IMG/VR virus record: IMGVR_UViG_3300024259_000042
Coordinates: 1 to 55,789 of that record
Direction: 5' to 3' (one strand)
DNA from: a virus
Lineage: Duplodnaviria > Caudoviricetes
Length of the DNA: 55,789 bases
In this document: positions 3,935 to 48,622 of the stretch, in pieces
How positions within the stretch are numbered: position 1 is the stretch's first letter
Layout of the letters: each line of letters opens with the position of its first letter
Notes under the pieces: generated by a model
Told to the model about the DNA's origin: nothing
The model's input: only the letters and a program-made list of their open reading frames with translations
Databases searched by the model: none
Position numbers and translations under genes: made by a program

Positions 3935-4233
3935 TGAGATGTTTTCAAACAACATATGATATGGATGATTTTGTTTATCTTAAAGGTGACGGTGAGCCAA
4001 AGATAAGAAGGAGTAGAATTAAAGGTATAAAAATAATTATAGGAAAACCTTATAAAACATTTGATGAAGAATTTGGTATGATTATTCACCATTCTGGAGT
4101 AGAAGTATATTATTTTGTAAATGTTAGAAGTGATGAGAATCATGTATATAGAGATTGGCGTAAAGAAGAGGAGTTATATAAAAGGAAAGAGGATATAAGT
4201 AAAGATAATGAGATTCCACAATTACATAAATGA
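3934..4233 (+). CDS. Hypothetical protein
   Basis: TAATG-coupled ORF. Confidence 0.55.
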   Translation: MRCFQTTYDMDDFVYLKGDGEPKIRRSRIKGIKIIIGKPYKTFDEEFGMIIHHSGVEVYYFVNVRSDENHVYRDWRKEEELYKRKEDISKDNEIPQLHK

Positions 4234-5629
4234 ACAAGCATTGAAGGGTTGGAAAGACTATGTTAAATCCAATAAAATGCTTAAAGCCTCTATAAAAATC
4301 CTTGATAAGATTGAAAAGAAAGGATATAAAGCATGGGTGGTTGGAGGAAGTGTTAGGGATATTATCATAGGTAAAGAGCCTCATGATGTTGATATTGCCA
4401 CCACCTGTCCAATGGATGTCCTAGATAAAATATGGAAGACCTATGATATAGGTTCCTCTAAAGATTTTGGTATTGTTACTGTCAAAGAAAGTGGATATGA
4501 TTTTGAGATTGCACAACTTAGAGGGGAATCCAAGTATGATGGTCGTAAACCTGAATCAGTTAAGTTTAATGTTCAGTTGAAGGATGATTTAGGTAGAAGA
4601 GACTTGACAGTGAATGCTATGGCTATTGATAAGAATGGTAACATTATTGATAAGTTCAATGGTCAAAAAGCAATGAAAGATAAAGTATTGAAAACAGTAG
4701 GTAATCCATATGACAGGTTCTCGGAAGATTTTTTACGGATCATGCGTGTTGCACGATTTGCTGCTAAGCTTGGTTTTGACATTGATAAAGATACTAAGAA
4801 GGCTGCAACAAAGTTATCAGGCAATATCACTAAACTTTCACCAGAACGAATTAAAGAAGAAATACTGAAATCCGCTGGTCAGTCAGGAGATAAGTTCGCT
4901 AAGTATATCCTTTTACTTGATCAATTGAAGATACTTAAACATATATTACCTGAATTAAAACAGTTACAATATAGTAAAGAGAATCCAACGCATCATCCTG
5001 AAACTGTTGGGAAAGGTGGCTCTCCATTTGCTCATACTATTGAAGCATTGAAAGCAAGTAAGACAAAGGATCCATTGAAGAACTTGGCTATACTGTTACA
5101 TGATGTTGGTAAGGGTACATCGTTTAGTGATTCTACACCTGGTAAATCTTTTACATATTATGGACATGATAAGGATGCTATCAAACTTATTGAAACCATT
5201 GCTAAGAGACTAAAGATGTCTAATAGTGAAAAGGAAGCATTGTTATATACTGCTACACAACATATGAAACTAAACATATTGAAAGACATGAAACCATCTA
5301 AAATCTTTAAAATAGTCAATAATGATAATTGGGATATTCTTGTGGTAGTAGCCAAAGCGGATGAAATGAGTAGGGGTGAGACTTTTAAAACAGAAAAAGA
5401 ATTTGATGAGATGATTAAATATGCTGAAGATATAAAAAACAAATGGAGTTCTAAAAAAGTAAAAGAAATATTTTCAAAACAGGTTAATGGTAAACATATA
5501 ATGGAGTTATTAAATATAGGACCATCCAAAAAGGTTGGTAAAGTAAAGAAGAAAACGATTGAATGGATAATAAATACAGGTGAAACAAACCAAAAAAATA
5601 TAGATTCTTATATAATGGAATTTAAATAG
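4208..5629 (+). CDS. cca: Class II tRNA nucleotidyltransferase (CCA-adding/poly(A) polymerase family) with HD domain; tagged
   Basis: VGGSVRD-DVDIAT, RRDLTVNAMA, EDFLRIMRVARF, LLHDVGK; starts MRFHNYINE. Confidence 0.9.
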   Translation: MRFHNYINEQALKGWKDYVKSNKMLKASIKILDKIEKKGYKAWVVGGSVRDIIIGKEPHDVDIATTCPMDVLDKIWKTYDIGSSKDFGIVTVKESGYDFEIAQLRGESKYDGRKPESVKFNVQLKDDLGRRDLTVNAMAIDKNGNIIDKFNGQKAMKDKVLKTVGNPYDRFSEDFLRIMRVARFAAKLGFDIDKDTKKAATKLSGNITKLSPERIKEEILKSAGQSGDKFAKYILLLDQLKILKHILPELKQLQYSKENPTHHPETVGKGGSPFAHTIEALKASKTKDPLKNLAILLHDVGKGTSFSDSTPGKSFTYYGHDKDAIKLIETIAKRLKMSNSEKEALLYTATQHMKLNILKDMKPSKIFKIVNNDNWDILVVVAKADEMSRGETFKTEKEFDEMIKYAEDIKNKWSSKKVKEIFSKQVNGKHIMELLNIGPSKKVGKVKKKTIEWIINTGETNQKNIDSYIMEFK

Positions 5630-5718
5630 GAGGACAGGGCTTGATCACCTTGGTTGGATGCCTTCAACATCTGACCTTACTCCTAACAAAATAAAAACCT
5701 TTGAAGGAGGTAGTTATG
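5623..5718 (+). promoter_or_regulatory. Structured RNA leader, copy 1 (three-way junction plus RBS pseudoknot)
   Basis: Homologous to 44065-44156 with compensatory changes; loop CCTTCAA (5661-5667) complements TTGAAGG (5701-5707) at the SD. Confidence 0.7.
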
Positions 5719-6639
5719 AAGATATGTTGGGATAATTTAGAAAATTTGAAACTAACTAGAAATGGTTACTTTAGAGATATTGTAAAACGAACTATATTTA
5801 GATATGTTGATGAATGTAAGACATGTAAAGAACCATTCTTAACGAGAACTAACACTAAAGGTATATACTGTTGTAACTGTTGTAAAAGGCTTACAGAAGA
5901 ATCTAAAAGGAAAGTAGGCGATTCACATAAAGGTAAAAGGTTATCAGAAGAACATAAGAAAAAAATAAGTGATGGCAATAAAGGAAGAAAATCATCAAAA
6001 TCAACAAGAGAGAAAATTAGAAAGTCAAAAATTGGTGAGAATAATCCTATGTATGGTAGGTATGGAAGAAAATCTGGTAATTGGAAAGGTGGATATACAT
6101 CTAAAAACATACCTACTTATGATACATATGCAACTCAATTAAAATGGACAGAGGAAGTTAGAAGAAATGAAAAGGACCCTAATATATTAGAAGTGAAATG
6201 CTTTAAATGTACTGAATGGTTTATACCAAAAGCATATGATGTATATAACAGAATACAATATTTAAAAGGTAATGATTTGTATTATGAAAATAGGTTTTAT
6301 TGTTCTAATGGGTGTAAACATACTTGTTCTGTATTTCGTAAATCTTATAATACTATAATGAAAGAAGATTCAATTAGAGCTGGCAGACTTACATGGTTAG
6401 AACTCAAACGGGAGATTCAACCCGAATTGAGACAAATGGTATTAGATCGTGATGAATATCAATGTGTTAAGTGTAGTTCAGATGAAAATCTTCAATGTCA
6501 TCATATCATGCCGGTTGTAGTAGAACCTCTACTAAGTGCGGATGTTGATAACTGTATAACATTATGCAAAGATTGTCATAAAGAAGCTCATAAACAAGAT
6601 GGATGTAGATATGGTCAGTTAAGAATAGAGGAGTGTTGA
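5716..6639 (+). CDS. HNH homing endonuclease with NUMOD3-like repeats and Zn-binding Cys motifs
   Basis: LSEEHKKKIS/GENNPMYG; RDEYQCVKC...CHHI...NCITLCKDCHKEAH; ATG at 5716 follows GGAGG. Confidence 0.85.
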   Translation: MKICWDNLENLKLTRNGYFRDIVKRTIFRYVDECKTCKEPFLTRTNTKGIYCCNCCKRLTEESKRKVGDSHKGKRLSEEHKKKISDGNKGRKSSKSTREKIRKSKIGENNPMYGRYGRKSGNWKGGYTSKNIPTYDTYATQLKWTEEVRRNEKDPNILEVKCFKCTEWFIPKAYDVYNRIQYLKGNDLYYENRFYCSNGCKHTCSVFRKSYNTIMKEDSIRAGRLTWLELKREIQPELRQMVLDRDEYQCVKCSSDENLQCHHIMPVVVEPLLSADVDNCITLCKDCHKEAHKQDGCRYGQLRIEEC

Positions 6640-11408: not shown

Positions 11409-12851
11409 TTCTATCTGATTACCCTCCTCCAATACTATTTCATCAGTTTCAAACCCTTCCACTCCATAATAACGAAACCTTACATTACCATGTTTACCCA
11501 AGTATTTAGTATGATCATGTATATCATATATTACAGCACCTTCCTTTTTATTAGCATGTTTCCTCAATGCCCTACCTATACTCTGTAACACTCTGATCTT
11601 ACTCTTAAATGGAGAACCAAATACAATATACTTCAAATTAGGTATGTTAATACCTTGTGCAAAGATACCATAGGTAGCAATCAATATAATATCCTTCCTC
11701 TTTAAACAAGCCTTACGCCATTTCTCTCGTTCCTCTATACTATCCCTACCAGATAAAAATACTATCTCCTTCTTGGTCACCCCTTGTAACCAATTCTTTA
11801 AATAATCTCCCTCCTTCTCAACCTTACCCACCAATATAAGAACATTATGATCCAATTTATTAACAACCTTCTTAATAACATTCAGTCTGTATTGATTAGT
11901 GAATACCAAATCCTTTACTTCATCATATGTACCCTCCAATACCTCCTGATACTCTATGTTAATAACCTTTACATTACATTTACTTATATAACCCTTCTCA
12001 GCAAGAAAACCTGAGCTGTAATTTGCTATAACAGGACCAAGATATGATTGGGTGTTCAGATTATCTAATTTTCCAGCATGTAGGGTTCCTGTAAATCCCA
12101 GTCTATAATCAGCATTGATTGACTTTACAAGGATTTTCTTCAAAGATAGTGCTTTTACAGAATGACATTCATCACATATTATACAATTATATAGTTTTAA
12201 TTTACTTGTATTTTTAATTAGTGTTTGCCAGGTTGATACCACAATATCTTTATCCCATTCCTTGGCCTTAGCATGGACCTTACCTACAGAATATTTCATA
12301 TCATATTCTTTCATATCATTATAAAATTGTTCTACTAAAGATTTATTAGGAACAATAATTATACACTGTTTTGCTTTTTTATTTTCCAATAATGTTTTTA
12401 GTATGTAAGCAATAATAAGGGATTTACCAGAAGCGGTTGCAGACCTAATGATACCTTTAGTATATTGTAGTGATTTTATTATGCAATCTTTTTGATAAGG
12501 ATATGGTTTCAAGGAAAGATTTTGTTTAATTTTTAAAGAAGAACCCTTAAACAAAGACTTTACACTATCATCAATTCTTAATATTACTCTCGGAAAGGAT
12601 ATTTTATTAATTCTTATTAACTCTGTTAGTAATCCATATGGTAAAAAACCATTGTTTTTTATTAAACAAATTTTACCGTCCCATCCTCCTGATTTATAGG
12701 CGGACATCCAATTATAACCATCAACTAAATAAGTAAATTCTTTTTTAAGAAGTTTTATATAATCCTCATCATCGGATTGTATTTGAATATGTAATTGATC
12801 ACCTTTTATTATATTTACTATATTATCCATCATATTGTTATATGTTTCCAC
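11403..12851 (-). CDS. uvsW: UvsW-like SF2 DNA helicase
   Basis: SATASGKS, DECH, GFTGT, LQSIGRALR; WDGKI N-terminal motif; next to UvsY. Confidence 0.9.
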   Translation of the reverse strand: METYNNMMDNIVNIIKGDQLHIQIQSDDEDYIKLLKKEFTYLVDGYNWMSAYKSGGWDGKICLIKNNGFLPYGLLTELIRINKISFPRVILRIDDSVKSLFKGSSLKIKQNLSLKPYPYQKDCIIKSLQYTKGIIRSATASGKSLIIAYILKTLLENKKAKQCIIIVPNKSLVEQFYNDMKEYDMKYSVGKVHAKAKEWDKDIVVSTWQTLIKNTSKLKLYNCIICDECHSVKALSLKKILVKSINADYRLGFTGTLHAGKLDNLNTQSYLGPVIANYSSGFLAEKGYISKCNVKVINIEYQEVLEGTYDEVKDLVFTNQYRLNVIKKVVNKLDHNVLILVGKVEKEGDYLKNWLQGVTKKEIVFLSGRDSIEEREKWRKACLKRKDIILIATYGIFAQGINIPNLKYIVFGSPFKSKIRVLQSIGRALRKHANKKEGAVIYDIHDHTKYLGKHGNVRFRYYGVEGFETDEIVLEEGNQIEL

Positions 12852-13477
12852 CGTTTATCGTTTTTTATATTATATATTACACATCTATTTACATTATATA
12901 TTTTAGCTATATCTATACCTTTTTCTCCTCTCTGTAATCTTTTCTTTATATCAATAATATTTTCATTTGTAAATTTTGCATTAGGATTATTTTCACCTTT
13001 GTTCATTTTACTCATTCGTTTACTCTGCATATCAACAAATTCAGGATTTTTCCATTGTTTTTCCATTTGGTTTTTTGATTGCACGGTTTTTATTTTTCTA
13101 TATTCATCGTTTTCCCATGTCCTTTTAATACTTTTACTGTTTGCTTTAGACATCTTCTTTTTAAATTCAGGATCTTTCCATTGTTTCTTTAAATCATCAC
13201 TGTTAAATCCTTGACCTCCAACTGTTAAATTATAATATTTTTTACTTTGTATTATATGGTTGGTTATTAATTTATTTTCATATCTATAGGACTCTTCTTC
13301 ACTACCAACAATAATAAGTATCTTTCTACCGAAATTTTTTCTACCATACATTTTGATATCCTCAAGTAATATCTTTCCGGATCCTAAATATCCATCGTCA
13401 ATATTAGTGGTAGAATGCTTACCAATATATTTTTTACCGTTTATTAAATTAGTGGTTTCATACACGAAATGTATCAT
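12830..13477 (-). CDS. GIY-YIG (Seg-like) homing endonuclease
   Basis: FVYETTNLINGKKYIGKH, YLGSG, YYNL..GG; start likely 13477 (TAATG overlap). Confidence 0.85.
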   Translation of the reverse strand: MIHFVYETTNLINGKKYIGKHSTTNIDDGYLGSGKILLEDIKMYGRKNFGRKILIIVGSEEESYRYENKLITNHIIQSKKYYNLTVGGQGFNSDDLKKQWKDPEFKKKMSKANSKSIKRTWENDEYRKIKTVQSKNQMEKQWKNPEFVDMQSKRMSKMNKGENNPNAKFTNENIIDIKKRLQRGEKGIDIAKIYNVNRCVIYNIKNDKRWKHITI

Positions 13478-13890
13478 TATAACCCCATCCTTTCGTTTTG
13501 TCCAAACTCTTTCATGTTCCATTTAACATCCTTCAATCCTTTGAAGCACATTTCAAAAAACTCCACTCTAATCATTTGATTCCTCATTAACTGTCGCATC
13601 TTCTTAATATATGGATCCTTTGGTAAATAATATTTCTCAATTTCAGTTTTCGTCAATGCTTTATCCTGTTCAAACCTAAAATGGTCATACCTCTTACCCA
13701 TCAATGCTTCCATTTTCTCCTCCATTTCCTCATATAACATTCTTTCCATGTTATATAAGTCTTGGTATTTGAGTGTAAGGAAAGTATTATCCTTCAATTT
13801 CTCCTGTAAATCCAACTCGTTAAAGGAAACCATTTCTAGGATTGGGTGTTCTTCCATCAATTTTTCTTGTATTATCTCACGTTCAGTCAT
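13477..13890 (-). CDS. uvsY: UvsY-like recombination mediator
   Basis: Helical 137 aa; LTKTEIEKYYLPKD and C-terminal WNMK pattern; upstream of uvsW. Confidence 0.7.
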   Translation of the reverse strand: MTEREIIQEKLMEEHPILEMVSFNELDLQEKLKDNTFLTLKYQDLYNMERMLYEEMEEKMEALMGKRYDHFRFEQDKALTKTEIEKYYLPKDPYIKKMRQLMRNQMIRVEFFEMCFKGLKDVKWNMKEFGQNERMGL

Positions 13891-32209: not shown

Positions 32210-33001
32210 CTATTCTATACAAATATTTAATTGGTTATATTGGCATCCATCTTTTTGGTGCACTTTTTTATGACAATCTATGCAAAGTGTGATACAATTA
32301 TCAATATCTGTTGATTCTAATGGATTGGTCGAAACTGGATAAATGTGGTGACAATGTAAAGGCTCTTCCGAACCACATTTAACACATTTATATCCATCCC
32401 TTTCCAACACCAATTTCCTTAATTCTGATTGTACTTCTCTTGTTAGTTCTAGCCAAGGTAATCTTCCTGCTCTTATTGCATCTTCCTTTATAAGTGTTTC
32501 GGGTGTTTTACCAAATATTGAGCAAGAGTTTTTACATTTCTTGGAACAATAAAAATGAGATTCACTATTATAATTACCTTTGATATGTTGTATTCTACCA
32601 TTTACATTATTCAAAGAAGGAATATACCATTCATTACATTTGAAACATTTTACTTCAAGTATATTTGAGTCCTGTTCACTTCTTCTAACTTCTTCTGTCC
32701 ATTCTATTTGGTGTGCAAATGTATTATACATTGGAATATCTTTCTTATTATAACCACCTTTCCATTGAGGATGATTTTTTCCTATAGTTTTTCCTTTACG
32801 ACCAATACTCATCTTTTCTTTTGATTTATCTGTATGTTTGACTATAACTACATTATGTCCTCTAATATATACATTCCACTTATTTTTATGTTTATTCCAT
32901 TTAACATATTCACCACAACCACAATTACATAGTAGTTGATGTTTTTTCAATTCATTAATTTCTTCTTTTGTTCTTCTATTCCTTTTTTGTATGAATTGCA
33001 T
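32210..33001 (-). CDS. HNH homing endonuclease, paralogue of 5716-6639
   Basis: CNCGCGE, HTDKSKEKMS; shared WTEEVRR, EVKCFKC, IRAGRL.WLEL.RE, CHHI, DNCITLC. Confidence 0.85.
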   Translation of the reverse strand: MQFIQKRNRRTKEEINELKKHQLLCNCGCGEYVKWNKHKNKWNVYIRGHNVVIVKHTDKSKEKMSIGRKGKTIGKNHPQWKGGYNKKDIPMYNTFAHQIEWTEEVRRSEQDSNILEVKCFKCNEWYIPSLNNVNGRIQHIKGNYNSESHFYCSKKCKNSCSIFGKTPETLIKEDAIRAGRLPWLELTREVQSELRKLVLERDGYKCVKCGSEEPLHCHHIYPVSTNPLESTDIDNCITLCIDCHKKVHQKDGCQYNQLNICIE

Positions 33002-41557: not shown

Positions 41558-41591
41558 ATACTAAACTCCTTTAAATAATTTTCCTCAATAG

Positions 41592-41635
41592 TATTTATAT
41601 TTATTTGTCTAAATATATAAATAGATATATAAATA
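41592..41635. promoter_or_regulatory. Divergent T4-type late promoters
   Basis: TATAAATA on minus (41599-41592) and plus (41616-41623, 41628-41635) at the strand switch. Confidence 0.7.
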
Positions 41636-41650
41636 TAGTTGGAGGGAACT

Positions 41651-43602: not shown

Positions 43603-44063
43603 TTGATTTATTAATAGAAAAATATCTAGGTAGAGCAGAAACAGGTATGGGTTGGAAAGAAAGTCCTGGTGGTGAAGTGTTTGTTAATCCATCTAATTCT
43701 GAACTCAATGATGCTGGTGGTTCTGATAAGATAGTAAGATTTATTGCTGATAGTAAAGCAAAAAAACTATATGTATGGTATTATAAGGGCGGATATCATC
43801 AAGATGTAGATGAAGAATTTGCAGGTAGTACAGAATCAGGTTTAGATGATTTTGATGCTCTATGGGGTGTTGCTAAAAAAGAAAAGGGAAAATGGTATTT
43901 TTTTGTAAGTGATTCACAAGGTTTTCCTACAGGTTCCATACATTCTGACAATATAAAAAAATGGACTGATAAATATAAATGGTTACAATCCAATTTTAAT
44001 GTTACAAGATGGTTTACAGATAGTGATTGGAGAAAGGAAATGAAAAGAGGTAAATGGGTATAA
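43599..44063 (+). CDS. 'NPS-RFIAD-W' family protein with tag variant
   Basis: MIDLLIEKYL; EVFVNPS..EL...VRFIAD...LYVW...H; LWGVAKK. Confidence 0.7.
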   Translation: MIDLLIEKYLGRAETGMGWKESPGGEVFVNPSNSELNDAGGSDKIVRFIADSKAKKLYVWYYKGGYHQDVDEEFAGSTESGLDDFDALWGVAKKEKGKWYFFVSDSQGFPTGSIHSDNIKKWTDKYKWLQSNFNVTRWFTDSDWRKEMKRGKWV

Positions 44064-44156
44064 ATAAATAGGAGGACAGGGGGTTGCTCCCTTGGTGGGA
44101 TACTTTATCTATTCTACCTTACTCCAAATAAATCTTGATAAAGGAGATTAATTATG
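44059..44156 (+). promoter_or_regulatory. Late promoter plus structured RNA leader, copy 2
   Basis: TATAAATA (44059-44066), then homologue of 5623-5718; loop CTTTATC (44103-44109) complements GATAAAG (44137-44143) at the SD. Confidence 0.7.
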
Positions 44157-44969
44157 ATAATATATAAAGCTACAAATAAAATTAATGGTAAATGTTATAT
44201 AGGTAAAACTACAAAAAATTTGAAAACTAGAAAAAAGCAACATATCCAAGATTCAAAAAAGAGTAAATATTATTTTCACAGAGCCATAAATAAATACGGT
44301 TCTGATAATTTTCAATGGGAAATAATAGAAAAATGTAAAAATGAGAGTAAATTATCAGAAAGGGAGGAATTTTGGATAGAAAAGAATGGTGATTATAATA
44401 TCATAAAAACATCAAGAGGTCCAGGATGCAATGGATATAAAAATAATCCGAGAATAGATGAAATTAAAGAAACTATAAGTAAAGGTGTATTAAAAGCTTT
44501 AGAAGATGATCCTTCTATAAGACAAAGAATAAGTGAAGGTAGAAAAAAAGCTATGTTGGAACCTGGTGTAAGAGAAAGATATAAAAAAGCGGCTAAAAAA
44601 AGATGTAATACAAAAGAATGGAAAGAAAAACAATCTATAATAGCTAAAAAACAAATGACGGATGAGAAAAAGAAGCTAATGTTAAATGGCCTTAAAAAGA
44701 AATATGCCGATAAACAATTTTTGGATTATTTGGATAAAAAACAGAGAGAACCTGGCGGAGCATATAGTAAGGAAGTAATCAGAAAGAGATCAAATAGTAA
44801 AGCTGAAGATTGGTTTATATGGAATGATAAAGGTGAGGAATATACAATAAAAAATCTGAGTAATTTTTGTAAAGAACATAATCTTTCAAATTCATCTATG
44901 AGTATGATTGCATCAGGAAAAAGAAATGTTCACAAAGGATGGAAATGTAGGAAATTGAATGGCTATTAG
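44154..44969 (+). CDS. GIY-YIG homing endonuclease
   Basis: IIYKATNKINGKCYIGKT, R...H, RAINKYG, ERE..WI, YN; C-terminal NL..FCKEH.L...HKGW. Confidence 0.88.
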   Translation: MIIYKATNKINGKCYIGKTTKNLKTRKKQHIQDSKKSKYYFHRAINKYGSDNFQWEIIEKCKNESKLSEREEFWIEKNGDYNIIKTSRGPGCNGYKNNPRIDEIKETISKGVLKALEDDPSIRQRISEGRKKAMLEPGVRERYKKAAKKRCNTKEWKEKQSIIAKKQMTDEKKKLMLNGLKKKYADKQFLDYLDKKQREPGGAYSKEVIRKRSNSKAEDWFIWNDKGEEYTIKNLSNFCKEHNLSNSSMSMIASGKRNVHKGWKCRKLNGY

Positions 44970-45471
44970 ACGAATCTATAGGAAGAAATTCCATGGTGTA
45001 ATGTTGAAGAGTGGCTATATCTATACCTTTAAATATCAAGCCTGGGCTAACGATCCTACCCCAGTTATAATTTTTATGTATAGCCTAGAAGGTAATCATC
45101 CTAACACAGGCCACCAGTTTCGTTTCCTACAAGCAATCAATTTTACCTATATTCCTAAATCAATGAGAAGGACATTTGCTAATGAATGGGCTAGAGTATT
45201 TGAAGCAACTAATGGTAATGTTAGATTTACTTGGGATATAGTTAAAAGAAGATATCCCTATCTGAAACATGCTGTAAGACGATACTTCATTAAGCCTAAC
45301 TATTATATAAGTAAATTACAAGAGATTCCATTTGAAGATATGGAGAAGGTAATAGTATCAACGTGGAGTAAAGATTTTAGTAAGAAAGTTAAGGTATCCT
45401 TATTACAAAAATTCCGTTCAGCTATGAGGGGTAGAAAAGAAATAAAAAGAAAAGCAAGAAGATGGATATAA
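44959..45471 (+). CDS. 2: DNA end-protector-like protein (T4 gp2-like)
   Basis: G.IYTFKY, D.TP.II, AINFTYIP..MR, A.RRY pattern; near gp4. Confidence 0.6.
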   Translation: MAIRRIYRKKFHGVMLKSGYIYTFKYQAWANDPTPVIIFMYSLEGNHPNTGHQFRFLQAINFTYIPKSMRRTFANEWARVFEATNGNVRFTWDIVKRRYPYLKHAVRRYFIKPNYYISKLQEIPFEDMEKVIVSTWSKDFSKKVKVSLLQKFRSAMRGRKEIKRKARRWI

Positions 45472-45506
45472 ATAGAGGAAGGAGATAACAATTATGGATA
45501 TAAATA
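45467..45506 (+). promoter_or_regulatory. Tandem late promoters
   Basis: TATAAATA at 45467-45474 and 45499-45506. Confidence 0.6.
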
Positions 45507-45531
45507 ATAAAACAGAAGGAGAAAAACCCAA

Positions 45532-45984
45532 ATGCCTACATATACAAATAGTTCCGCAGGTTTAGTTCAATTCGGTGATGTAACTTTTGGTGGTAATGAA
45601 GTTAAAGGATTATATAGTTACCTAGACCTTAGCAAAGAAACATCAGGATACATTAGTTTAACAAGTGCTACACCATATTTTAACCCAGCTAATTGGACCC
45701 ATTCACCTACTTCAGCAGAAGCTAGTATTACATTAGTGAGTTGGCAAGAAACTGAAGGTGTGGAAATATATAACACAAGTGCTAATCTTATCACTGTATT
45801 TTTAACTGAAACTGCTAATACACCAGGTATTGTTGTACCTGCTAATTCAGTAAGATATATATGGGGATTCAAAGGTGGAGTAAAAACAATTGCATTTACA
45901 TATAGTGGTGCGGTGAATGCTGGTGAGATGTATGTTACTGAATTAAGAAATAGGGATAATCTTAGTTTAAAAATGGTGAGTTAA
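45532..45984 (+). CDS. Probable virion structural protein
   Basis: MPTYTN start; Ser/Thr-rich beta protein; late promoter. Confidence 0.6.
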   Translation: MPTYTNSSAGLVQFGDVTFGGNEVKGLYSYLDLSKETSGYISLTSATPYFNPANWTHSPTSAEASITLVSWQETEGVEIYNTSANLITVFLTETANTPGIVVPANSVRYIWGFKGGVKTIAFTYSGAVNAGEMYVTELRNRDNLSLKMVS

Positions 45985-46534: not shown

Positions 46535-46651
46535 ATGAAAAAACTAAATATATATATTAGCTCAAGGAGATTAAGACCTTATAACAATAGTAAGAAACTG
46601 AATGTATATATTAGCTCAAGAAGGTTGAGACCTTATACAGAGAGGGGATAA
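46535..46651 (+). CDS. 38-aa basic peptide with internal duplication
   Basis: MKKLNIYISSRRLRPYNNSKKLNVYISSRRLRPYTERG; 4 of 5 differences between the 43-nt repeats are synonymous. Confidence 0.55.
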   Translation: MKKLNIYISSRRLRPYNNSKKLNVYISSRRLRPYTERG

Positions 46652-48622
46652 ATGGCAAAATTTAGTGTTTCCAATTTAGATAGTTTAACTGTAACTGGTG
46701 GAAGTATTACTGGTATTACAGATTTAGTTGTTGCTGATGGTGGTACTGGAGTAAGTACATTAACTGATGGAGGTATATTAGTTGGTAGTGGTGTAGGTCC
46801 AATTACTGCTCTTGGTGTTGCTGCTAATGGTGAGATTCCTATTGGAGATGGAACTACTGATCCTACTCTTGGAACAATTACTGCTGGAGATGGTATAGAC
46901 GTTACTAATGCTGCTGGAACTATTACGGTTGATACGGATTTGAAATCTGAGGGTGGTATTGTCATTGAAAGTGGTGAATTGGCAATGGATTTAGATGGTT
47001 CAAATATAACTGGGACATTAGCAGTTAGTGGTGGTGGAACCGGACTCACAGCCTCACCCATAACCGTGCCTTTGGGTGGCACAGGAGCCACGACATTAAC
47101 GGACCACGGGGTTGTCCTGGGTAGCGGGACTGCAGCTGTGAGTATTACGGATTCAGGTGCCAACGGTGAGGTGCTGGTGAGCAACGGAAGTGCGGCTGAC
47201 CCTGATTGGGAGTATCAGCCGAAACAAAATCTTTTAGGAAATAGTGGTTTCGGAGTTTGGAGTAATTCGGAGGATTTATACACTACTGCGGGGACTGCCG
47301 TTGGAGATGCTACGGTTGAAGATGCTACTGATTTGATTCTCAATGGTAATATGGGAAGCTGGCAAGGTGTTGACCCTGATTATCCTGTTGGGTGGTCTAT
47401 TAATGGAGCTGACGCTGGAGAAGTATCTGACGGTGGTGGGGTTATGCACCTCCATACGGATGCTGGAAATGAAGGAGTTGCTACAAACACCTATACTTTA
47501 ACAGCAGGTAAACTTTACGAATTTAGTGGTAGTTTTACAAGGGTGTCCGGAAATATTGTATTAAGAATACACACTGGTGCTGGAGGACTTCATGAAGCAG
47601 TAACTTTAACAGCTACAGATACAACCTTTTCATATGTGTTTGAAAATACATCCACAGGAGCTTCTGGTTACATAATAATCTGGTCATCTGGTGCAGCAGA
47701 ATGGAACATCGACAAAGTACAACTCCAAGAAGTCACCCCAGGGATTGTGAGTGCTACAAGCCTTGGACCAGATGGATGGTATGTTGAAACAGCAGCCGAT
47801 TGTTGGAGAGAACAATGGGATATGACAGCAAATCATTTTGGAGGAACTTATAATGTTTATGGTGGAAGTATATATTCTTTAAAAGTTACACCTAACGCCC
47901 AAAATGATAGAGTATTTTGTAAACTTGTAAACGGTAATTATAGTAGTCCTAATATGGCTGCAATGCAAGCAGGTAGAACCTTTACTTTTGGCGCCTGGGT
48001 TAAAGCATCAGTAGCTTCAGATGTAAAGTTAATGTTATATAATGATGTTGATGGTTATGTGTATTCAAATAATTATGGAATTTTAGATACATGGACATGG
48101 TTAGAAGTTACATCAACAATGAGTAGTACGAGTCCAACTCAAAATTTTTGGTCAGGATTTAGATTTTTAAATGCATCTCCAGGAACCACCTATATTTCAT
48201 CTCCGATGTTGGTCTTTGGATCAAGTATAGGAGAGGGGAACTATGTGCAACCTCCTGGTGAGTGGGTGTATTTGGATGACCAAACTGGAAGTAATTCTTT
48301 GATATATAATGCAGCATCAATAAACGAAGCCGCTGGGGCAATTGTTTATATCGAAACTCTTACAGAGGGTAGGATACCTAAAGGTATTAAATCTTTAAAT
48401 TTAAGACTTGGAGGGAGAACCGCTACAGCAGAAAAATATCTTAATTTTCGTATAGCAAGTGGTTCTAATCAAGGAGCACCAACATATGCTCAAGTTGCAG
48501 ATAAATATATCACACACAATTTTATTATACCATGTGATGCAAATGGAAATATAAATGTTATAACAAATAATGCTTGGACAGATGTAAGCTTGCGGGTTAT
48601 AGCCGTCCAAATAGCCTCATAA
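46652..48622 (+). CDS. Tail fibre/receptor-binding protein 1
   Basis: GGTG fibre repeats followed by carbohydrate-binding-like modules; paralogous to fibres 2 and 3. Confidence 0.75.
   Translation: MAKFSVSNLDSLTVTGGSITGITDLVVADGGTGVSTLTDGGILVGSGVGPITALGVAANGEIPIGDGTTDPTLGTITAGDGIDVTNAAGTITVDTDLKSEGGIVIESGELAMDLDGSNITGTLAVSGGGTGLTASPITVPLGGTGATTLTDHGVVLGSGTAAVSITDSGANGEVLVSNGSAADPDWEYQPKQNLLGNSGFGVWSNSEDLYTTAGTAVGDATVEDATDLILNGNMGSWQGVDPDYPVGWSINGADAGEVSDGGGVMHLHTDAGNEGVATNTYTLTAGKLYEFSGSFTRVSGNIVLRIHTGAGGLHEAVTLTATDTTFSYVFENTSTGASGYIIIWSSGAAEWNIDKVQLQEVTPGIVSATSLGPDGWYVETAADCWREQWDMTANHFGGTYNVYGGSIYSLKVTPNAQNDRVFCKLVNGNYSSPNMAAMQAGRTFTFGAWVKASVASDVKLMLYNDVDGYVYSNNYGILDTWTWLEVTSTMSSTSPTQNFWSGFRFLNASPGTTYISSPMLVFGSSIGEGNYVQPPGEWVYLDDQTGSNSLIYNAASINEAAGAIVYIETLTEGRIPKGIKSLNLRLGGRTATAEKYLNFRIASGSNQGAPTYAQVADKYITHNFIIPCDANGNINVITNNAWTDVSLRVIAVQIAS

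Follow-up and report, generated by a model that had tools for sequence, protein, structure and literature searches.

The 55,789-nt record IMGVR_UViG_3300024259_000042 of an uncultured virus (Caudoviricetes; completeness estimate 26%), the whole of which is called the window below, carries two copies of a structured 5' leader of about 85–95 nt, one before an HNH gene (5627-5711) and the other before a GIY-YIG gene (44069-44149). This leader is probably, with a likelihood of roughly three in four, a portable translational lock of free-standing homing-endonuclease cassettes in a clade of uncultured T4-like phages. Its fold, the loop-loop contact ("kiss") that covers the ribosome-binding site (RBS), and its link to nuclease genes are supported by covariation and by gene context; the pairing in turn suggests that translation is repressed, the purpose being to keep a DNA-cutting enzyme scarce. 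Homing endonucleases need to be made in small, well-timed amounts, and a T4 review names the control of the free-standing members as an open area (PMC2988022). One self-contained RNA lock, with more than 100 natural variants, that serves unrelated nuclease families looks like a control module travelling with selfish genes. It is a well-supported addition to RNA catalogues, helps in the annotation of nuclease cassettes in uncultured phages, and could provide a set of orthogonal translational locks.

Architecture of the leader

Both copies, and the genes behind them, lie on the + strand and share a 17-nt head, TAAATAGGAGGACAGGG, that is identical at 5623-5639 and 44065-44081. A preliminary description of this DNA, made from the letters of the window, had reported this repeat together with helices P1, P2, and P3, a CCTTCAA loop, and a CTTA linker in copy 1, and a check of the sequence located each of them as described. 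The three-way-junction core of copy 1 occupies 5627..5685, an assignment that draws on the sequence, the minimum free energy (MFE) fold, covariation, and a score of 73.8 bits with R1, a covariance model of the core (58 positions, 17 pairs). P1 pairs TAGGAG with CTCCTA (5627-5632/5680-5685), around a core of GGAG (5629-5632) and CTCC (5680-5683), and is joined to P2 by J1/2, the dinucleotide GA (5633-5634). P2 pairs CAGGG with CCTTG (5635-5639/5648-5652) below a loop (5640-5647) that contains the palindrome TGATCA (5642-5647). P3 is formed by GTTGGATG (5653-5660) and CATCTGAC (5668-5675), with CCTTCAA (5661-5667) as its loop, and J3/1, CTTA (5676-5679), leads back to P1. An A-rich single-stranded linker, AACAAAATAAA (5686..5696), assigned from the sequence and from linker composition over 112 copies, then joins the junction to P4 (5697..5711), a hairpin with the stem ACCT/AGGT (5697-5700 / 5708-5711) and the loop TTGAAGG (5701-5707). 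The Shine-Dalgarno (SD) sequence GAAGGAGG (5703-5710) lies half in the P4 loop and half in the P4 stem. Five nt past it, the ATG at 5716 opens a gene of the HNH + NUMOD3 homing-endonuclease type (5716..6639, 307 aa; Pfam). The full-length covariance model, R2, scores 83.0 bits on this copy over 5627-5721.

The core of copy 2 (44069..44127; sequence, MFE fold, R1 69.4 bits) is built in the same way, with P1 formed by GGAG (44071-44074) and CTCC (44122-44125), GA as J1/2 (44075-44076), P2 at 44077-44083/44088-44094 with the loop TTGC, P3 at 44095-44102/44110-44117 with the loop CTTTATC (44103-44109), and CTTA as J3/1 (44118-44121). Its P4 (44131..44149) has the stem AATCTT/GAGATT (44131-44136 / 44144-44149) and the loop GATAAAG (44137-44143), and its SD, AAGGAG, spans the P4 loop and stem. 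R2 scores 71.4 bits over 44069-44156, and the gene that follows is of the GIY-YIG homing-endonuclease type (44154..44969, 271 aa; Pfam). Copy 2 keeps P1 and P2, and, as had been noticed from the sequence, its P3 stem, P3 loop, and loop target have all changed yet still pair. The RNAfold MFE structure of both copies is the same three-helix junction, with predicted core energies of -18.1 kcal/mol for copy 1 and -20.5 kcal/mol for copy 2.

The complement of the copy 1 P3 loop, TTGAAGG at 5701-5707, does overlap the SD, and the part of the preliminary description that spoke of a pairing between loop and SD therefore stands. The structure that it called an RBS-sequestering pseudoknot takes a different form: the P3 loop kisses the loop of P4, an extra hairpin that had been overlooked.

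Homologues in uncultured phages and metagenomes

Covariation had been expected among homologues of the two copies, and covariance models were built and searched in phage and metagenome collections. A first pattern, made from the conserved head and tail, retrieved 12 IMG/VR loci; in all 8 new sequences the P3 loop was altered, and the SD stretch was altered along with it. Another 78 loci were fetched via the HNH protein, independently of any RNA pattern. The R1 search (633 kb, E up to 1) gave 35 matches corresponding to 26 distinct sequences, and only two matches lay inside the window. A looser pattern yielded 28 viral loci, at least 118 metagenome loci, and 18 cellular-genome loci, and R1 accepted 103 and 43 matches among the looser-pattern loci. 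Pooling and exact-sequence de-duplication left 122 sequences. Five of these (L180, L222, L227, L229, and L232) were excluded as chance hits in GC-rich DNA that appears to be coding; three of them (L227, L229, and L232) score below 28 bits with R1 and have no kiss. The resulting 117 distinct copies, which come from uncultured phage and metagenome contigs and draw on at least 118 metagenome loci, were aligned to R2. The IMG/VR and metagenome collections overlap, and near-identical copies persist among the 117. Conversely, the second pattern is broken by 5 of the 16 distinct copies that arrived without the first one (R1 search alignment, read by eye), and the family is therefore wider than the collected set.

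In GenBank phages, blastn searches with the region and with the 96-nt leader found no real match, and among cultured relatives the HNH protein has only partial, distant matches. The R1 search likewise found no match in Bacillus phage SPBc2. Of the 18 pattern matches on cellular genome contigs, only one clearly passes R1 (L235:5222-5316, - strand; 33.9 bits), and it is also the sole genome-contig match to pass both models (R2 40.4 bits). This match has no clear start codon downstream; the 63-kb contig that carries it was assigned to an archaeal metagenome-assembled genome and is probably a mis-binned phage contig.

Covariation of the three-way junction

Covariation is strong in P1, P2, P3, the loop-loop helix, and P4. 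For the junction, 96.8% of the cells are paired in the 26 sequences, with 12 of the 17 pairs changed on both sides, and the 117 rows give similar values (96.0% paired; two-sided changes in 18 of the 22 nested pairs). When the 3' partners of the 117 rows were slid by 1–3 columns, in three slid controls on each side, at most 52% were paired. The fifth P1 pair, which is free of the search patterns, covaries as well, being AU in 35 copies, GC in 15, UA in 8, GU in 7, and unpaired in 21 (n=86).

Several features of the junction are nearly fixed. P1 comprises 4–5 bp, J1/2 is a near-invariant GA, and the first three pairs of P2 are near-invariant C-G, A-U, and G.U. P2 and P3 abut with zero nucleotides between them, and J3/1 is a near-invariant C-U-N-A. 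The G.U wobble at the P2 base is kept in 115 of the 117 rows; because it would be an A-C mismatch on the opposite strand, the fold belongs to the + strand transcript. The linker that joins the junction to P4 is A-rich and 7–23 nt long, mostly 9–16.

The apical loop of P2 contains a self-complementary word of at least 6 nt in 60 of the 117 rows, against 4 of 117 for the P3 interior. Among distinct P2 interiors, 15 of 37 contain such a word; 1000 shuffles gave 6.9 on average and never more than 14. The words include UGAUCA, UGGCCA, UAGCUA, GUCGAC, GUGCAC, CUGCAG, and UGUACA, and they stand in a register other than that of the P2 stem; in the window, TGATCA stands in copy 1, and copy 2 lacks such a word. 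These words may allow leaders to dimerize loop to loop, as retroviral dimerization sites do, or they may be palindromes of the DNA.

A loop-loop helix over the ribosome-binding site

In 108 of the 117 copies, the whole 6–7 nt P3 loop is complementary to the P4 loop, and the pairing stretch ends in the first bases of the SD. This match is kept through great variety, with 43 different 7-nt and 31 different 6-nt loops, and all four Watson-Crick pair types occur at loop positions 3–5 in both length classes and at position 6 in one class. Of the 26 distinct copies collected first, 25 have a P3 loop that pairs over its full length with the copy's own SD stretch, compared with 61 of 640 pairings with the leaders of other copies and 323 of 5200 with shuffled own leaders. 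In a gap-free MAFFT alignment of 10 copies, the loop-loop helix is 100% paired, and 6 of its 7 pairs have changed on both sides. Most of the nine non-matching copies have longer or mis-assigned loops that pair over 7–8 nt, or a single mismatch (L129, L192, and L171), and the kiss looks decayed in three copies (L106:4151, L116:179, and L201). The 74 matched loop pairs amount to a natural mutate-and-rescue set for intramolecular kissing loops at a ribosome-binding site.

P4 accounts for the other half of the SD. Just 5' of the loop target stands a short pyrimidine word (CCU, UCU, or CUU), which pairs with AGG or GAG in the 3' half of the SD and with the bases that follow. At least 4 consecutive pairs flank the kissing partner in 89 of 112 copies, a number that falls to 4–12 of 112 if the 3' side is shifted by 2–5 nt. 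When the 3' side is instead taken from other copies, 48% of the swapped flanks still form at least 4 pairs, because CCU and AGG are common to all; at the stricter level of at least 5 pairs, own flanks reach 50% and swapped flanks 20%. There are 101 distinct combinations of P4 stem and loop, and the outer pairs covary, as in ACCT/AGGT, AATCTT/GAGATT, CAATTT/GAATTG, and ATATTCT/AGAATAT. All 5 modelled P4 pairs have changed on both sides, with 85.7% paired over the 117 rows. Both halves of the SD are thus hidden in the predicted structure, the 5' half by the loop-loop helix and the 3' half by the P4 stem.

Nuclease genes behind the leader

The leaders stand almost exclusively ahead of nuclease-type genes. 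Among 95 distinct downstream proteins of at least 80 aa, Pfam finds NUMOD3 in 37, HNH in 28, and GIY-YIG in 8, as well as HNH_3, His-Me finger, DUF559, and MTES_1575 matches. Iterated searches assign 42 downstream proteins to the type of the window HNH protein, 10 to GIY-YIG, 9 to His-Me/endonuclease VII, 4 to HNH_3, and 3 to a PD-(D/E)XK-like type, and 8 of 10 Pfam-poor proteins match PHROG endonuclease families. Single-linkage clustering of the proteins was uninformative for counting families, as shared modules merged 99 of 106 proteins. Pfam bears out the earlier assignment of the two window nucleases to unrelated families (HNH + NUMOD3 and GIY-YIG), and the idea of a portable cis-acting RNA gains from the presence of the same leader ahead of at least four nuclease architectures. 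The preliminary description had also offered a switch, a thermometer, and an autoregulatory site as options. The first two would be conjectural for now, and the nuclease is unlikely to regulate its own synthesis through the leader, given that unrelated nucleases carry it.

Intact leaders also head decayed nuclease genes (L022:649-738, L041:2884-3007, L005:1196-1382, L134, L100, and L143), which have lost the ATG or are reduced to frames of 5–31 codons; the gene at L022:649 has ATA for ATG, and those in L041 and at L005:1196 are remnants of 11–31 aa. The leader thus seems to outlast its gene. One 33-kb viral contig (L022, L050, L098, and L103) holds at least six distinct leaders before genes of the HNH type and the HNH_3/NUMOD3 type, each with its own loop pair save for one tandem duplicate. 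Among loci with several copies, a loop is repeated in 3 of 25, all of them apparently overlapping fetches of one contig. This scarcity of repeats equals the chance expectation given the number of loop types, and the notion that loops are kept orthogonal within a genome was dropped. On the 3' side no conserved boundary was seen, since the gene that follows either begins 1 nt past the nuclease gene or overlaps it, and no usable relative with an empty site was found among loci fetched via flanking proteins. A leader peptide was also considered and rejected: the short frames after the 5' GGAGGA differ between the two window copies in frame and in sequence.

Proposed mechanism and points against it

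In the proposed mechanism, the three-way junction would form with P2 and P3 stacked coaxially, and this stack, with P1 set by the conserved junction, would point the 3' strand back along P3. The A-rich linker would deliver P4 to the P3 loop, the P3 loop would kiss the P4 loop, and the SD would be split between the kissing helix and the P4 stem. A 30S subunit would then meet no free SD, and nuclease translation would stay low on any transcript bearing the leader, whether read-through or its own. The lock being self-contained, it would work wherever the cassette lands.

A number of observations weigh against this explanation. First, the case for repression consists of the pairing. The predicted energies are modest, at -7.2 and -4.6 kcal/mol for the kiss duplex of copies 1 and 2 and -4.0 and -3.4 kcal/mol for P4 alone, and given these values the lock may be leaky or conditional. 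Second, a plain hairpin would suffice to hide an SD, and a simple throttle leaves the conserved junction unexplained. Third, the leader is found on only 2 of the 4 homing-endonuclease-type genes of the window: an HNH gene (32213-33001, - strand) follows a plain spacer of 25 nt whose SD is of the ordinary kind, and a SegE-like GIY-YIG gene (12833-13522, - strand) overlaps its neighbour. Similarly, the leader lies directly upstream in only 10 of the 78 loci fetched via the HNH protein, and the sequence upstream of many close homologues of that gene is unrelated. Finally, patterns that fix the junction letters supplied most of the 117 copies, and junction conservation is in part a product of this construction; the alignments of the 117 rows to R2 and of the fifth P1 pair were fitted to the model and are biased towards it.

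Comparison with known RNAs, and the possibility of a switch

The preliminary description had recognized no known family in the leader, and the catalogues agree: Rfam 15 (cmscan, gathering scores) gives no match in the whole window, and no ribozyme or cobalamin model is listed for either copy at E up to 10. The best two sub-threshold matches reach 21.4 of 47 and 16.7 of 47.2 bits. The best of them, between copy 2 and the preQ1-II riboswitch (RF01054; E 0.11 on a 131-nt search), resembles the leader in that a hairpin loop pairs with AAAGG of the SD, and the cmscan alignment spans the full model. However, copy 1 is unmatched, the junction and P1 of the leader have no counterpart in that riboswitch, and this candidate was rejected. 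A sub-threshold match to GP20-a (RF02991) was inspected and rejected as well.

The closest precedents belong to the same kind of gene. RBS-sequestering structures limit the translation of I-TevI, I-TevII, I-TevIII, segB, and the mobE gene of Aeh1, according to two papers (PMC2988022, PMC3014915). Like the leader, these T-even-type hairpins are cis-acting RNA structures that directly precede a phage homing-endonuclease gene, pair with its SD, and likely keep the nuclease scarce. They are, however, single local stem-loops specific to their locus, whereas the leader has four helices and a kiss of 6–7 bp, is portable, and is common to unrelated nuclease families; the earlier view that it is more elaborate than the T4 hairpins is thus upheld. 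Endonuclease leaders go unmentioned in the main text of a survey that reports over ten thousand candidate structured RNAs from IMG/VR, and its supplementary tables may list the motif (PMC10690425). Full-text searches on phage homing endonucleases and RNA control found no description of such a leader. Relative to this literature, the leader is a new and far more elaborate version of a known type of control.

The alternative that survives best is a refinement of the lock. The leader could be a regulated switch in which the junction senses a small molecule, a protein of phage or host, or the concentration of the RNA itself (via P2-loop dimerization) and gates the kiss, confining nuclease production to a particular state of the infected cell. 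At present this is a tentative possibility. The junction letters (GA, C-G, A-U, G.U, and C-U-N-A) hardly vary while the stems are free to do so, and the P2-loop palindromes exceed both the shuffles and the P3 interior. The layout is also one in which a sensing domain contacts an RBS hairpin through a kissing loop. Cobalamin riboswitches are built in this way, with a loop of the upstream domain kissing the loop of the hairpin that bears the RBS, but the leader has neither a match to the cobalamin aptamer nor a candidate ligand, and its regulated genes are nucleases. In architecture, it combines a conserved junction and covarying helices with an SD-hiding platform (P4 and the kiss), as expected of a riboswitch; a shared metabolic or transport theme downstream is lacking, the genes being nucleases of several families. 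Moreover, the conserved unpaired nucleotides of the junction number only about six, a small count for a ligand pocket, and their conservation is partly imposed by the search patterns. The P2 loop is not always palindromic, as copy 2 illustrates, the nuclease genes hint at no ligand, and no Rfam riboswitch reaches its threshold.

A bolder version, and a more doubtful one, is that the leader represents a new class of sensing RNA, whose junction (G.U and C-U-N-A) binds a cell signal or a phage protein, or whose P2 dimerizes in the manner of a dimerization initiation site and thereby reports the concentration of the leader; in both cases the P3-P4 contact would be opened or closed. If so, selfish nucleases would be made only when homing can succeed, and the leader would be the first switch dedicated to homing endonucleases as well as an instance of the kissing-loop platform outside the cobalamin class.

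Transcription and promoter words

In T4, the SD of gene e and that of I-TevI are freed late in infection by an internal late promoter. A similar temporal bypass of the translational lock could be envisaged, in which a late promoter in the linker gives a short transcript without either the junction or the 5' strand of P4, and the SD is free only late. T-even-type hairpins are bypassed through an internal late or middle promoter in this way. The window has a gp43-like DNA polymerase, and TATAAATA words, which look like T4-type late promoters, occur just upstream of several of its genes, at 41599 (-) and at 41616, 41628, 44059, 45467, 45499, 46512, 46522, and 49533 (+), including a divergent pair around 41558-41638. 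A word within two mismatches of TATAAATA occurs in the linker and loop partner of 65% of 112 copies, compared with 43% of shuffles, and mostly ends 3–6 nt ahead of the P4 loop. It is because of this weak excess that a bypass is retained as an alternative at all, albeit an unlikely one: the linker is simply A-rich, none of 106 copies has the exact word there, and only 17 of the 106 have one with at most one mismatch.

Words with at most one mismatch peak 6–8 nt 5' of P1 instead, in 28 of 106 copies, 10 of which have the exact word at that spacing. By the T4 rule for the distance between late-promoter word and transcript start, transcripts from such words would begin 1–3 nt before P1 and carry the whole lock. 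In copy 2, the putative late-promoter word (44059..44066, + strand) ends 4 nt before P1, and the start might lie inside P1. The stop of the upstream gene falls 5–26 nt before P1 in 47 of 92 copies; since there is no fixed stop-to-P1 distance, a precise coupling to the upstream ribosome is unsupported.

Contigs identical to the window are present in five metatranscriptome runs. One such contig (43946-44267) extends from the upstream gene across the leader to the start of the GIY-YIG gene and counts in favour of the lock. RNA-library contigs may reflect DNA carry-over and give no information on start, strand, or level, and stretches that they leave uncovered carry no meaning. They are deepest at 45441-45774, right behind two TATAAATA words.

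It is highly improbable that the leader is primarily an element of RNA processing or stability, such as a self-cleaving ribozyme, an RNase target that splits off the upstream gene, or a protective 5' stem, with the SD pairing as a secondary matter. A late-promoter word upstream would place P1 1–3 nt from the transcript 5' end, as in protective 5' stems, and an A-rich linker would suit RNase E. Yet neither copy matches a ribozyme family at E up to 10, no terminator-like site was found in either window leader, and the strongest and most varied covariation is that of the SD-hiding pairing itself. Least credible of all is a DNA-level signal, with the head as a recombination or cassette boundary or a protein-binding palindrome for gene movement and the RNA fold incidental: similarity does begin abruptly at P1, the leader travels with unrelated nuclease genes, and P2 loops often hold palindromes like restriction sites, but compensatory changes in five helices and a one-strand G.U have no explanation at the level of a DNA duplex, and no matching 3' boundary was seen.

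Genomic setting

ARAGORN finds no tRNA or tmRNA genes in the window. Ahead of the gene at 46652, at about 46540-46650, the intergenic DNA contains a pair of imperfect direct repeats, each about 32 nt long, one being ATATATTAGCTCAAGGAGATTAAGACCTTATA and the other a variant of it. The DNA polymerase of the window is of the gp43 type and shares about 30% identity with its counterparts in T4-like cyanophages and pelagiphages. The gene upstream of copy 1 (4208-5629, + strand) encodes a tRNA nucleotidyltransferase of the CCA-adding enzyme type (phrog_2244), and ends in a TAG stop codon that overlaps the beginning of the leader.

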